A stretch of DNA of 64,000 nt from Candidatus Woesearchaeota archaeon (lineage in GTDB: Archaea > Nanobdellota > Nanobdellia > Woesearchaeales > JAZDKJ01): NCBI GenBank assembly GCA_043803105.1, contig JAZDKJ010000005.1, positions 64,001 to 128,000 on the forward strand, in the 5' to 3' direction. Numbering within the stretch: the stretch's first letter is position 1; every line of letters starts with the position of its first letter. This document shows, piece after piece, positions 42,729 through 60,028 of this stretch. The notes under the pieces are model-generated. The model was not told the DNA's origin and did not search any database. It saw only the letters and a list, made by a program, of their open reading frames with translations. Position numbers and translations under genes: made by a program.

Positions 42729-43883
42729 ATGGGAAAATATTATTTTACATCTGAATCAGTAACAGAAGGGCACCCTGACAAGATATGCGACCAGATTTCT
42801 GACGCAGTGCTAGACGAACTCTTCAAGCAAGACCCTTATTCAAGGGTTGCGGTTGAGTGCCTTACAACCACAGGAACAGTGCACGTGGCAGGAGAGGTGA
42901 CAACAAAGGGCTATGCTGACGTGCAGAAGATTGCAAGGCAAACGCTTCACGACATTGGCTATTGCGACCCAAGGTTTGGCATAGACTGCGAGGACGCAGG
43001 GGTATGGGTCTCGATACATTCACAGAGCGCTGATATCTCCAAAGGCGTAACTGAGCAAGGAAGCCACGAGCAGGGAGCAGGAGACCAGGGAATGATGTTC
43101 GGGTTTGCATGCAATGAGACAAAAGAGCTGATGCCTCTGCCGATAATGCTCGCGCATAAGCTTTGCATGAAGCTTTCGGAGGTCAGGAAAAAGTCCATAA
43201 TAAAAGACATAGGGCCTGACGGGAAATCCCAAGTGACTGTGGAATACCAGGACGGAAAACCAAAGAGAATTGACGCTGTAGTGATAGCCCAACAGCACAC
43301 TGAGGAATGCTCAGAAGAAAAACTCAGGGCTGAAATAATAGAGAAGGTGATAAAACCGGTCTGCGGCCAATACCTAGACAAAGACACAAAGTTGTTCATA
43401 AACGCCACGGGAAGGTTTGTCATCGGAGGTCCTGAAGGAGACACTGGCGTTACTGGTAGGAAGATAATCGTTGACACATACGGAGGGATGGGAAGGCATG
43501 GCGGGGGCTGCTTCTCAGGAAAAGACCCTACAAAGGTGGACAGGTCAGCTGCTTACGCATGCAGGTATATAGCAAAAAACATAGTGGCAGCTGGACTCGC
43601 TGACAGATGTGAAGTACAGCTAGCTTATGCAATAGGCGTAGCAGAACCGATGAACATCTTTGTTGAGACTTTTGGCACAGGAAAAATACCTGAAGAGAAA
43701 ATCTCAGAGCTTGTGCGAAAACACTTCCCAGTAAAACCAAAGGACATACTGGACCAGCTGAATCTACGAAGGCCAATCTACAAGAAGACAGCAGCGTACG
43801 GGCACTTTGGAAGGGAAGATCCTGACTTTACCTGGGAGCGTGTTGATAAAGCCGAGATATTACGCAAAGAGGCTGGACTTTAA
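42729..43883 (+). CDS. metK: S-adenosylmethionine synthetase (bacterial/eukaryotic-type MAT)
   Basis: [34 protein letters not shown]. Confidence 0.98.
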
Positions 43884-44037
43884 GAAAAGTTCCGTCTTGA
43901 AATTTATTTTTTTGTTTTATTTTTAATGAAAAGCAGGGCAGAATAGACGAGATTTCTATCGTAACATTTAGCAAAAGTGTGGCTACAAAAGTGCTACAAA
44001 ATTCATGATTTCTGCAAGACCTAATTGAAAACTTTAT

Positions 44038-44057
44038 ATATCAATGCCTGTTGATAT
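44038..44057. promoter_or_regulatory. Putative ArsR operator
   Basis: ATATCAA-N6-TTGATAT directly upstream of arsR. Confidence 0.6.
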
Positions 44058-44063
44058 GTTTAA

Positions 44064-44351
44064 ATGCCAGACAAAAATAGATTGCTGCTATTCAAAGCAC
44101 TAGGCGAAGAAACGAAGTATAGGATTATTGAGCTTCTCCTAAAAAAAGGAGGATGCACTTGTGAGACAGGAGAGTATTGCGCCTGTGAAATTCCTTCTAT
44201 TATCAAGAGAACACAATCTAACACATCTATGCATCTTGCGAAGCTGCAAGAATGGGGGATAGTAAACTCAAGAAGAGAAGGCAAGAAAATACTTTACTCA
44301 ATTAAGGATAAGCGAGTATATGAAATTTTCAAGATATTGAATGACAAATAA
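44064..44351 (+). CDS. arsR: ArsR/SmtB family regulator
   Basis: FKALG; CACE; TQSNTSMHL; RREGK..LY. Confidence 0.9.
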   Translation: MPDKNRLLLFKALGEETKYRIIELLLKKGGCTCETGEYCACEIPSIIKRTQSNTSMHLAKLQEWGIVNSRREGKKILYSIKDKRVYEIFKILNDK

Positions 44352-44364
44352 ATAAGGGGGCAAA

Positions 44365-56942: not shown

Positions 56943-58661
56943 TTAAGGTCCTCTAAACTGTCTCAAGAGCCAGGCGAACAAGTTGTTCAACCATGAAGGC
57001 TTAGTAACAGTATGACCTAACGCTTGACCAGTAATCTGGTTGTTGTCAGTTGAAGCAGTTCCATTAGTACCCTGACCAGTCCCCCCAGTTTCTTGTCTAA
57101 TGTTGGCCAATTCTGCTGTCTGTAGCTCTGTTGGCACAGTCCTATCTTGGCCTACCGCATTTGTTTCAGTATGTTTACATGGTTGCTTTTGTTTTGATAT
57201 GACCTTGCTATTTGGGTAGGTGCATGTCTTTATTTGTATTCCTTCTGAATTGCATGCTGACCATTCTGAACACTGCCCATTAGCTCCCAAACTTCCGCTA
57301 CCTCCTGAACTTCCTCCTCCTCCTGAGGATCTCTTTTTCGCAGCCGGATTTGTCGGAATTGTTGGTGCCTGGAATTCGTTTACTGTTATTGTTATAGCTT
57401 CGCTTGCCGATTTTATACTGTCGTTAACTGTGAAGGTCACGTTAGTTACTCCCACATCAGTCACGTTTGGCATCCAGTTGAAGGTAGCAGTCCCGTCATA
57501 ATTGTTGGTAAAGTTTGCTGTTGCAGGTTTGCCGGCAATTACAAATGTTAAATTAAACCCGTCTGGACTTGTGGCTGTTATTGTGAAGTTAAGCAATGTA
57601 TCCTGCGTAACGCTCATTGAACCGATATGATTGAGTATCGGAGCAGCTGTCTGTACAATAACTACGCTTGTTGCGCTTACAGTTCCGCTCGTCGCACTAA
57701 TTGTAGCGCCGCCAGAAGCAACAGCAGTAACAAGACCGCTTGTAGCATTAACTGTAGCAACAGACAAATTGCTTGAAGCATAGGAGATGGTCGCACCTAT
57801 CAACGAACCATACTGATCAAGACTTGTAGCATTCAACTGCAAAGTAGATCCGACAGTAAGATTTGCTGATGTTGGTGCTAATATGATTGTTGTCAAAACA
57901 GGGACAATAGATGGTAATGAGACAGTATTGGCACTTAATGTAACAGCTGTTTGCGCCAATGCCCTTCCGTTTAATGTTGCGCCAGTATTCAACACAATCG
58001 CTGTTTGATCCAGAATGTTTCCATTGAAAACAGATGTTGTTCCAAGGGTTGTTTTGTCAGCGACTTGCCAGAAGATGTTGTATGCCTGGCAGCTACCGCT
58101 GAGAGTAACAATTGCACCACTGCCCACGGTGAGGGTTCCTGGTATCTGAAAGATGAAGACACCTGCGGAGTTGCCAAGGCAATCGAGAGTGACACCAGTG
58201 TTTATTACAACCCCAGTCCCCCATTTATAGAGCCCAGGAGTGAGAGTCATCCCACTAATATCTCCCGCACCTAGTTCAGTAACATCAGGTAATGAGCGTC
58301 CTGCCGCATCAGTGTACGCTGTTTCCATGTCGCTTATAGCTGTAGCCATAACCAATGGGGTTGGATCTGCATAGTCGGCTGCATAAACGCTTCCGTTAAC
58401 TAAAGATGATGTGGAAAATTGGTTCGATGCATCAAGTATCAGTCCAAATCCTGTGATCGCAGTGCTGTCGATAGGACTCACCCCAATATTTCCAACAATA
58501 GAGGTTGTGCCAGTGGTTGAGATTCCTGATTTTGCCAATATTACAAAATTCCCGGCTGTTCCGAGATCTACAGCTGGTTGTGCTGCATATACTGAACATA
58601 CTACAGATACAAAAACCATAAGATATACAAAGACGTTTGATAATATTTTTGTTTGTTTCAT
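56943..58661 (-). CDS. Secreted DUF3494 (ice-binding-type) protein with Ig-like domains
   Basis: VDLGTAGNFVILAKSGIS; AYTDAAGR; LTPGLYKW; NIFWQVA; NGRALAQTAVTL; Big_2-like YASSNLSVATV. Confidence 0.92.
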   Translation of the reverse strand: MKQTKILSNVFVYLMVFVSVVCSVYAAQPAVDLGTAGNFVILAKSGISTTGTTSIVGNIGVSPIDSTAITGFGLILDASNQFSTSSLVNGSVYAADYADPTPLVMATAISDMETAYTDAAGRSLPDVTELGAGDISGMTLTPGLYKWGTGVVINTGVTLDCLGNSAGVFIFQIPGTLTVGSGAIVTLSGSCQAYNIFWQVADKTTLGTTSVFNGNILDQTAIVLNTGATLNGRALAQTAVTLSANTVSLPSIVPVLTTIILAPTSANLTVGSTLQLNATSLDQYGSLIGATISYASSNLSVATVNATSGLVTAVASGGATISATSGTVSATSVVIVQTAAPILNHIGSMSVTQDTLLNFTITATSPDGFNLTFVIAGKPATANFTNNYDGTATFNWMPNVTDVGVTNVTFTVNDSIKSASEAITITVNEFQAPTIPTNPAAKKRSSGGGGSSGGSGSLGANGQCSEWSACNSEGIQIKTCTYPNSKVISKQKQPCKHTETNAVGQDRTVPTELQTAELANIRQETGGTGQGTNGTASTDNNQITGQALGHTVTKPSWLNNLFAWLLRQFRGP

Positions 58662-58919
58662 TTTTTAATTCCTCCCTAAATAATAAAATACCGTAATGGT
58701 AGCAATTTTTTCTGCCTGAAGTTCACATATAGTCCTTAACCCATTGATACAGTTTTATTCTGACTATTTTTTACTTCTTAGCAATAGTAATTACTTTTAT
58801 TACTATAAACATAAGTTATATACTATATATTCAATATATATGCTATAATTACGTCTATAATATAGGTACTGAAAATAAGTAGTTAGTTTTATATATAACA
58901 CTAAGTTATTATATATACT

Positions 58920-59912
58920 ATGGAAGATATTAGGGATGAAAGAAAATTAATTAAGTTTGGGAAATCAGCTTTTTGTATAACTGTGCCACATACGTGGCTG
59001 AAAAAAAACAGGATAAAGAAAGGCGATTCATTGTCTGTTCAGGAAACCCTAAGAAATTCTTTGGAGATAATGCCAAGGTATAGCTCTTCAAAGGATGCAG
59101 AGGAATTATTAATAGACATATCTGGAAAGTCGACTGATGAAATAATACAATTGCTGCTCTCCACATACCTAAATGGATATACACTTATCACCTTGCGCGG
59201 ACCAAATGCAGGAAAAATGGAATTCGTCAGAAAGCATGTACACGAATTTATTGCAGCTGAGATTATGGAAGTTACCTCAGACAGGATAGTAATCCAGGTT
59301 TTTTGGGACATAAAGACCATAAACCTAAATTCAATAATCATAAGGATAGGACATATCACAAAGAGCATTTTTTCAGAAACAATAGAGTTGGTTGATTCAG
59401 AAACAAATGTAACAGATATAGTGGAAAAAGGATTTGAGGTCCAGCGGCAAGTCTTGCTTGCAAGAAGGGCCATCCAAAGTGCCCTCAATAATTCGGTTAC
59501 AGCACACAAATTTAATCTTTCATCATTAGAGCTGCTCTATATCTCTTACATAATCTATTTTTTCGGAATGACTGGTGATTATATTGTTAAGGTAGCAAAA
59601 ATTATAGATAAGGCAAAACTCAATAAATCCAAGGATCTTTTGAAGGATCAGAATTCCAAAAAAGAGTTAAAGGCGTTAATTCAACGGACCTCAGATTATT
59701 ACGGAAAAGTCATCGATACTTACAATCAGCATAACAAACTTGTAAAGTTTGTATTTAGCGAATATGCTGATTTTGAAGACTCCATAGATGAGTTTAGAAG
59801 AAAGAACCTCCAAGTATGGGCACCGCTTTTGGCGGAATATCTAAAGATGATTGTATTCAAGATTAAGGAAACAGAATTCACGATGATCAGCATGGAGAAT
59901 GCACCAAAATAA
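58920..59912 (+). CDS. AbrB-PhoU-like regulator
   Basis: RKLIKFGKSAFCITVPHTW…IKKGD; YLNGY; helical C-terminus. Confidence 0.75.
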   Translation: MEDIRDERKLIKFGKSAFCITVPHTWLKKNRIKKGDSLSVQETLRNSLEIMPRYSSSKDAEELLIDISGKSTDEIIQLLLSTYLNGYTLITLRGPNAGKMEFVRKHVHEFIAAEIMEVTSDRIVIQVFWDIKTINLNSIIIRIGHITKSIFSETIELVDSETNVTDIVEKGFEVQRQVLLARRAIQSALNNSVTAHKFNLSSLELLYISYIIYFFGMTGDYIVKVAKIIDKAKLNKSKDLLKDQNSKKELKALIQRTSDYYGKVIDTYNQHNKLVKFVFSEYADFEDSIDEFRRKNLQVWAPLLAEYLKMIVFKIKETEFTMISMENAPK

Positions 59913-59947
59913 TTTATCCTTTTTCCTCTGGTTTTATAGATGGGAAG

Positions 59948-60028
59948 AAACTCGACTCATCGAGACTTTCCCTGGCAGCGAACAGACAAGGCTGAAACAT
60001 TCCAAAAGGAGGCAAGCACCTTAGTTTA
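59948..60028 (+). repeat. metK 3'-end copy A6 (degenerate)
   Basis: AAACTCGACTC then HRDFPWQRTDKAETFQKEA. Confidence 0.85.

Follow-up and report, generated by a model that had tools for sequence, protein, structure and literature searches.

Site-specific accretion of mobile DNA at the 3' end of a gene is already known. The genomes of DPANN archaea are tiny and few mobile elements have been recognised in them, yet accessory genes differ between close relatives. Here, a 64,000-nt window of a Candidatus Woesearchaeota archaeon genome was analysed (GenBank assembly GCA_043803105.1, contig JAZDKJ010000005.1, positions 64,001 to 128,000; all positions below are those of the window). A 16-kb array lies in this window behind metK, the S-adenosylmethionine (SAM) synthetase gene. 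About 10 small accessory-gene cassettes make it up, and 12 copies of a single short recombination-type site lie between them. Among published systems, the ssrA islands of Dehalococcoides come closest to it (McMurdie et al. 2011, PMC3146451). In the available text of that paper, the islands lie in tandem downstream of a single-copy essential gene and carry strain-specific cargo. Each island is bounded by a 20-bp direct repeat of the tmRNA gene 3' end, and a conserved 15-bp element-side motif, which does not align with the gene, lies directly upstream of each repeat. A serine-recombinase (DsiB) module is carried by 16 islands; some islands are without the integration module, and for these either mobilisation in cis or fixation has been suggested. 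The units of the metK array are likewise bounded by repeats of the target 3' end, the target is regenerated (six tails and an intact metK), and a conserved non-aligning motif abuts each repeat. However, compared with what that text describes, the target in the metK array is protein-coding, with a 63-nt coding tail plus a ~120-nt leader, and the host belongs to DPANN. No recombinase was seen in any cassette of six loci; the cassettes are much smaller; and a second, tail-less site class bounds the internal cassettes.

Two further groups of elements accumulate at one chromosomal site. Tycheposons are pile-ups at tRNA genes, with 937 integrase-carrying elements (Hackl et al., preprint 10.1101/2020.12.28.424599). 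As far as the available part of the preprint goes, they resemble the metK array in successive integrations at one site, older elements pushed inward, partial target copies, degraded remnants, and adaptive cargo. Their targets are tRNA genes and they were found through their integrases, whereas the metK array has a protein-gene target and no integrase was found. The archaeal integrative elements include cases with attachment sites in coding genes, tandem integration, and integrase loss (Badel et al. 2021, PMC8371274). These elements are viruses and plasmids with replication and integrase genes; the accessible portion of that paper mentions neither metK nor DPANN, and describes no small-cassette array with two site classes. 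No metK attachment site and no such arrays in DPANN or Woesearchaeota were found in the literature, the supplementary files of the cited papers not being covered. The original prediction, which was made from the letters of the window, knew of no such system described for metK or DPANN archaea; read as a claim that nothing similar is on record, this goes too far, given the published ssrA islands and tycheposons.

Integrons and clusters of attC sites lacking integrases (CALINs), including the archaeal ones, are based on IntI and folded attC sites (Ghaly et al. 2022, PMC9668308). Judged from the available text, the metK array is, like them, made up of small cassettes in a row, with a co-oriented recombination site at the end of each. 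The toxin-antitoxin and resistance cargo, the lack of a nearby integrase (service in trans being possible), and the sharing of cassettes between genomes are also similar. The metK array differs in having no IntI, and its sites are conserved in sequence and not in folded structure. Its anchor is located inside an essential gene, which is repaired at each insertion, whereas attI lies next to intI. Identity of the sites with attC was rejected. DNA folds of eight site stretches gave z values of -1.42 to +0.89, and the best inverted repeats in the sites matched at 5-7/11 positions, which was equalled in 79-297 of 300 shuffles. An integrase gene beside the array, as expected for an integron, was not found: the array contig (C5) has no PF00589 match. 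The original prediction had also seen no integrase inside the array, and this part of it stands. Integrative mobile elements exploiting Xer recombination (IMEX) have no recombinase of their own, use the host Xer at dif, and can form tandem arrays at one chromosomal site. The metK array resembles them in the lack of an element-encoded recombinase, and Xer-like open reading frames (ORFs) occur in the five array genomes searched. The dif site has 11-bp inverted arms around a 6-bp spacer (PMC2958812, available part). The metK-array site lies inside metK and not at dif, and has no 11-bp inverted arms. The Xer/dif reading was rejected, with no dyad symmetry and no related site elsewhere in the genome. 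A C-terminal displacement array of the Rhs or contact-dependent inhibition (CDI) type, built by homologous recombination, was also rejected: its displaced 3' gene ends would have variable tips and cognate immunity genes, whereas the tails here are conserved MetK C-termini under purifying selection, and the cargo is unrelated to MetK.

The original prediction had placed six displaced metK tails on the same strand, at 47690, 48899, 52170, 55049, 56480, and 59948, and all six were found there (A1 to A6 in Table 1; the start positions are counted from the first arm letter). We refer to the arm, the core, and the displaced metK tail together as an A site. The arm, AAACTCNNCNC, precedes the core, which is a 7-nt NTCCNGA sequence. 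In all six copies the similarity to metK begins at this shared core, with the non-metK arm before it, as had been proposed. The arm is intact in five of the six tail sites; the copy at 48899 (A2) has two arm and four core mismatches. The identity of the six copies to metK is 6-12/40 in the 40 nt upstream (chance level), 1-2/11 in the 11-nt arm, 3-7/7 in the 7-nt core, and 22-44/58 in the tail. Because of this profile, one common left boundary at the core can be assigned to 6/6 copies. Such a sharp shared boundary bears out the claim of insertion at one point inside metK.

The A1 to A4 tails differ from the resident metK tail at 13-24 of 60 nt, with a ratio of nonsynonymous to synonymous change (pN/pS) of 0.08-0.29. 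Real metK-versus-metK comparisons with the tails of other lineages gave 0.11-0.25. The stop codon at the metK position is kept in A1 to A3 and lost in A4. The distal copies are decayed, as had been noted: A5 differs at 35/60 nt (pN/pS 0.67), and A6 at 23/60 nt (pN/pS 0.29) with the tail end lost. A6 is probably the oldest tail, marking the end of the array. The tail alignment thus does not show neutral divergence of the proximal copies, and the constraint read from them earlier holds. These ratios show that the proximal tails diverged under purifying selection before displacement. The tails are therefore old, having diverged as working gene ends, and are neither recent duplicates nor collapsed strain variants.

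An assembly artefact was also considered, in which different strain versions of the region behind metK would have been joined into one contig through the repeated tail. The genome carrying the array (G000) is a 1.56-Mb metagenome-type assembly of 13 contigs. The contigs of relatives often break at or just after metK, inside the gene in G001 and soon after it in G024 and G011. However, the tails differ from metK at 13-35/60 nt, and with this divergence and their short length they would not mislead an assembler. Each cassette is present once, and the same architecture was seen in independent assemblies. A contig from a public sequencing run, which may be the source sample, spans 54917-55273 and crosses the A4 junction with 0 differences. 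We consider this explanation very improbable.

The modules had been described as bounded by tails only. Five intact tail-less sites and one decayed tail-less site had been missed, and therefore the modules are smaller and more numerous (e.g. MazEF is its own cassette). The five intact tail-less sites, here called B sites, have the same arm and core, followed by a 15-nt TATATGCCCCGAAAG box without a metK tail. Altogether, 12 co-oriented sites lie in 16 kb: six tail sites, five tail-less sites, and one decayed tail-less site. They bound about 10 cassettes of 0.3-3.8 kb with clean site-to-site boundaries. The tail and tail-less sites have common sequence only through NTCCNGA(C/T), that is, a 7-8-bp overlap. 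The tail-less sites have 18 nt in common with the other sites, or 33 nt when the box is included. The arm has mismatches at 4/88 specified positions across the 11 intact sites. There are 0/8 arm mismatches at A5 and A6, beside the decayed tails, which suggests that the sites are maintained. Using weight matrices derived from the sites, the array copies scored 31-51 bits, and the best scores elsewhere in the genome were 13.3 bits (A matrix) and 18.0 bits (B matrix). This gap indicates that the sites are not due to chance. Of the genome matches to the arm and core with at most one mismatch, 9/10 were inside the array. Both site types are confined to the array within the genome. In two places (47617/47690 for B1/A1 and 48824/48899 for B2/A2), a box site and a tail site are 73-75 nt apart, with a homologous spacer between them. 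The spacer at 47651-47689 is homologous to 48858-48898, and to the spacers in three loci of other genomes (L046, L049/L081, and L059). It might act as a promoter, judging from its sequence. Degraded versions of the spacer, identified by eye, precede A3 and A6.

We consider it probable that the cassettes were inserted site-specifically at the 7-nt core within the last 21 codons of metK, by a recombinase acting in trans. Each cassette would carry a left half-site at its 3' end, composed of AAACTCNNCNC and the core. The 5' end of a class A cassette would consist of a replacement metK tail followed by a T-run and then a ~120-nt conserved leader; the 5' end of a class B cassette would consist of the 15-nt box. 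A class A cassette would recombine with metK and supply a new working tail, and the old tail would be pushed downstream with the arm of the cassette and decay. Class B cassettes would enter at displaced tails or at other cassette ends. They are found only at internal sites, presumably because their entry into metK would truncate MetK. The enzyme would be encoded outside the array. It is most likely a tyrosine recombinase, because of the 7-8-bp common overlap. The anatomy of the array agrees with the integron-like insertion proposed in the original prediction; for its recombinase and mechanism, we infer that the cassettes pass through circular intermediates, that insertion follows the rule of two classes, and that the enzyme is of the kind given above. 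The proposed age order agrees with the distal tails being more decayed than the proximal ones. A strict order does not follow, since the tail-less sites mean that cassettes can also enter internally.

The same sites were then compared across an order-wide sample of 401 genomes, together with scans of one genome per species, of metagenomes, and of viral contigs. The arm and core pattern matched 6/401 genomes. Four of these, from three families, are true carriers; the matches in G049 and G123 were rejected as chance, with neither tail nor box following. A reversed control pattern gave two matches in the same 401 genomes. Four loci were found in the one-genome-per-species scan and three in the metagenome scan, which with the window represent six lineages (Table 1). 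Among 19 metK downstream regions in the order, only that of G009 has a second tail, and this tail bears the same arm. The tail copies of the five other lineages break at the same core as the six of the window. Over 1256 nt, the window and L081 have 90.4% identity in the MNT-HEPN unit (arm included); the corresponding value for the window and G009/G215 is 79%. The metK bodies of the hosts sharing this unit are only about 66-67% identical. These comparisons indicate that cassettes move horizontally and are shared across families. The shared MNT-HEPN homology has its 5' end at a core-like CATCC(G/A)A, and its 3' junction is the same in all four lineages carrying the unit. For HEPN homologues elsewhere in the order, eight loci were examined, and the arm follows in 0/6 with a readable downstream flank. 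In L048, the MNT-HEPN unit is flanked by an arm-core-box site and an arm-core-tail site. Recombination between a B-type cassette and a tail site, using no more than 18 common nt, would be expected to leave just this arrangement.

Cassette content was expected to vary between relatives, and it does: the same-genus genome G001 (84% complete) has a metK 77% identical to that of the window and none of the 16 kb of cargo. The loci L047 and L048 belong to near-identical strains, in which the metK end is 100% identical and the downstream flank 99.6% identical. They differ by a 108-nt deletion right after metK and by a cassette region in which the identity is no more than 95%. Only L048 has a 1.3-kb class II aldolase gene, and this indel is not bounded by array sites.

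The homology between units continues past the stop codon through the T-run and then a ~70-nt conserved leader, for about 190 nt in all; tail excluded, the leader stretch carried by a class A unit is put at about 120 nt. The leader is common to array loci of different families, and no significant match to it was found behind metK in 19 array-less relatives. The window and L046 are 66-67% identical in the metK body; the value rises to 83% in the metK tail and is 79% in the 125 non-coding nt that follow the stop. Replacement of the tail by a mobile unit would produce such a jump of identity at the core. Together with the pN/pS of the proximal tails, it agrees with the earlier claim that each unit brings its own working tail. 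The homology, which runs well past the stop, is also long enough for Campbell-type homologous recombination. In that case, small circular or linear DNAs with a captured metK 3' fragment would have entered by a single host-mediated crossover within the ~190 nt, with the tail duplicated as a result. The arm would be part of the element backbone, and no dedicated recombinase would be needed; none was found. The right halves look mosaic: the window and L081 are 87% identical in the distal leader, and by eye their tails are clearly less alike. L047 and L048 differ by 5% in the cassette region and by 0-0.4% in the flanks, as allelic exchange gives. However, the tail-less sites, with 18 nt in common (33 with the box), bound at least five cassettes of unrelated cargo, and the core is present in these sites without any metK sequence. 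The six tail copies and the five other lineages all break at the same core, and the arm has kept its sequence better than the adjacent decaying tails. Homologous recombination is therefore regarded as unlikely, and site-specific insertion at the core is preferred.

A small hairpin is present in the leader at 43983-44004, with 6 bp and a 9-nt loop, and also at the homologous places in A2, A3, L046, L048, L059, and L081. In both L059 copies, 2/6 pairs are changed on both sides with the pairing kept; these changes, from one lineage only, give slight support for a functional structure. In G043 (L081 reverse complement, ~2365-2493), the resident metK is without the usual stop and is read through for about 23 residues. 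Evidently, MetK can end up with a C-terminus of a different length once its tail has been swapped.

Recombinases were searched as PF00589 matches at E<=0.01, and the array contigs of G000, G009, G041, G042, and G043 were covered in six frames. In G000, five matches were found on C6, C7, and C10: one Xer-like, three zinc-ribbon integrases, and one weak match. The three zinc-ribbon integrases are tyrosine recombinases of 430-452 aa with a C-terminal four-cysteine zinc ribbon (C10:28784-30073, C7:31020-32375, and C6:519961-521277). Neither flanking repeats nor an array site was found near the G000 integrases. The C10 enzyme has a 48-49% identical homologue in G009. The Xer-like ORFs occur in G000 (278 aa, C6:250177-251013), G009, G041, G042, and G043. 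In the sixth locus, L059, only the MutS-like cargo gene was seen; its 502-aa product was tried as a recombinase candidate and rejected, being a weak MutS_V-type ATPase.

Several observations weigh against site-specific insertion by an enzyme in trans. No PF00589 match was found on the five array contigs, and no serine recombinase (PF00239) match was found in G000. The zinc-ribbon integrase family occurs in 56/401 genomes, but in only 2/4 array carriers. The presence of Xer-like ORFs shows no specific link, and neither of the two Xer-like subfamilies follows the distribution of the arrays. The sites have no dyad symmetry, which is unusual for simple tyrosine-recombinase core sites. The variable position of the core differs between sites, whereas identical overlaps are normally required for strand exchange. 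Two readings fit the 73-nt B-spacer-A unit equally: a mini-cassette (an empty class B), or an arm of a longer class A attachment site. Viral contigs gave 0 matches to the tail-type, tail-less, and arm-core patterns. No circular or excised form was found; the one public run (0.06 word share) gave thin contig cover and no joints, and speaks neither for nor against mobility. The array may also be a fossil, with several cargo genes broken. As separate observations, no relative of the MNT protein was found in the viral contigs, and a public-run contig matches the window up to 47806, just past the T-run behind A1, followed by 135 letters unlike the window. This divergence may come from another organism, or from a variant in which another cassette follows the same tail.

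A fossil array could also have arisen as a pile-up of integrase-bearing viruses, plasmids, or integrative mobilisable elements at a metK attB, with the integrases and most genes later deleted. Tandem integration and integrase loss are documented, in the available parts of the sources, for archaeal elements (PMC8371274), tycheposons (10.1101/2020.12.28.424599), and ssrA islands (PMC3146451). Pseudogenes and gene fragments in the array, and the decayed distal tails, would fit such a history. However, a remnant integrase would be looked for on the five array contigs, which have no match at E<=0.01, or in L059, where the cargo is MutS-like only. The cassettes are 0.3-3.8 kb with clean boundaries from site to site, and MNT-HEPN has the same 3' junction in its four lineages. 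Moreover, simple attL/attR scars do not predict tail-less internal sites. We regard this history as quite doubtful, more so than the crossover within the ~190-nt homology. In comparison with the known systems, insertion at the metK core could represent an undescribed archaeal integron-like gene-capture system, which we put forward tentatively, as a possibility short of probable. Such a system would have ~33-bp unstructured, sequence-defined sites, and would dock in an essential gene that is repaired at each insertion. Tail-carrying 'pioneers' would enter metK, tail-less 'followers' would enter on displaced tails, and the trans-acting recombinase would possibly be of a new type. If this is true, part of the DPANN gene flux would be due to a metK docking site that collects cassettes for defence, toxin-antitoxin, and arsenic resistance, and these cassettes are common to families with only about two-thirds identity in their housekeeping genes. 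The essential gene would serve as a safe, self-repairing anchor, and the last 21 residues of MetK would be swapped in each event. The system would also offer a compact, sequence-defined recombination site with two partner types.

Table 1. Features of the metK array in the window, and related loci in other genomes.
Feature	Position	Strand	Description
metK	42729..43883	+	intact 384-aa ORF; last 21 codons downstream of the crossover core
Core ATCCTGA inside metK	43819..43825	+	codons D-P-D; attachment point where homology with all displaced copies starts
Resident right half (R_A)	43826..44012	+	metK tail, stop, T-run, ~70-nt conserved leader (GAGATTTCTATCGTAA ... GTGGCTACA-N-GTGCTACAAAAT) with small hairpin
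Site A1	47690..47765	+	arm, core, displaced metK tail with stop
Site A2	48899..48974	+	degenerate arm and core; displaced tail keeping stop
Site A3	52170..52245	+	arm, core, displaced tail with stop
Site A4	55049..55121	+	arm, core, displaced tail, stop lost
Site A5	56480..56552	+	intact arm overlapped by HEPN stop codon; decayed tail
Site A6	59948..60020	+	intact arm, core with 1 mismatch, decayed tail
Site B1	47617..47650	+	arm, core, then TATATGCCCCGAAAAG box; no tail
Site B2	48824..48857	+	1 arm mismatch
Site B3	51281..51314	+	arm, core, box
Site B4	53141..53174	+	arm, core, box
Site B5	54705..54738	+	2 core mismatches
Decayed B-type site	50600..50625	+	ATGCCCCAAAAAC box retained; arm and core mostly deleted
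Spacer of composite B-spacer-A site	47651..47689	+	B recognition element (BRE)/TATA-like stretch and small hairpin
Cassette 1	44064..47614	+	ArsR, arsenite methyltransferase, thioredoxin, ArsP-type permease, DsbD-like membrane protein
Cassette 2	47861..48673	-	270-aa protein, weak PRAI/TIM-barrel match
Cassette 3, decayed	49176..50577	mixed	split MBL-fold gene, foreign class II aminoacyl-tRNA synthetase (aaRS) fragment, 238-aa-family remnant
Split MBL-fold gene (cassette 3)	49176-49442 and 49515-50096	+	
Class II aaRS C-terminal fragment (cassette 3)	50125-50475	-	116 aa; tRNA-synt_2, E 7e-34
Remnant of 238-aa gene family (cassette 3)	50457-50577		
Cassette 4	50630..51219	-	MazF and MazE
Cassette 5	51365..52147	mixed	102-aa ORF (-), 117-aa ORF (+) weakly winged helix-turn-helix-like; degraded spacer after
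Cassette 6	52398..53114	+	238-aa protein without family
Cassette 7	53267..54600	+	helix-turn-helix protein (HTH_11) and AbiEii-like nucleotidyltransferase
Cassette 8	54819..55034	+	71-aa ORF, no family match
Cassette 9	55296..56479	+	relic core-like junction (~55296-55312), MNT (55391-55984), HEPN (55968-56480)
Cassette 10	56943..59912	mixed	DUF3494/Ice_binding surface protein (56943-58661, -); AbrB/MazE-domain regulator (58920-59912, +)
L046/G091			metK, one YdeI-like cassette, box-spacer-tail site
L047 (=L058)/G009 and L048 (=L057)/G215			MNT-HEPN between box site and tail site
L049/L081/G043			metK, MNT-HEPN, box-spacer-tail site
L059			metK, 502-aa MutS-like ATPase, box-spacer-tail site

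The list of modules given in the original prediction largely holds. The less certain part is the AbiE-like pair. The AbiEii-like nucleotidyltransferase is named from Atlas look-alikes only (feature score 0.98; structural similarity, TM, of 0.74 to the AbiEii cluster), with no match in Pfam, PADLOC, or NCBIfam. The 238-aa protein of cassette 6 likewise has no family in Pfam, PADLOC, or NCBIfam, and its Atlas scores are <=0.80 with a poor model. The arsenite methyltransferase of cassette 1 scored 309.9 bits in NCBIfam (cut-off 263). This SAM-dependent enzyme (44365-45108) is encoded in the first cassette, directly behind the SAM synthetase gene, which is probably a coincidence. In cassette 3, the aaRS fragment is considered foreign because its sole relative in the genome (C6:53219-53485) is only 38% identical. 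The fragment may have come with an element that targets another essential gene, as its displaced or replacement tail. The remnant in the same cassette is 77% identical to the 3' end of the 238-aa gene (52994-53114) and is followed by the decayed site. Therefore, this gene family entered the array at least twice.

Regarding the surroundings of the array, no tRNA genes were found in the window, and no known RNA families (Rfam) were found at E<=1 within 42500-61000. A strong A-skew at 1-8000 was rejected as an anomaly, and corresponds to a run of small plus-strand genes. A DUF1385 gene and a 209-aa ORF without an assigned family lie upstream of metK. The array is AT-richer than its surroundings, with a GC content of 0.35-0.41 versus 0.42-0.47 in the flanks and the genome contigs.

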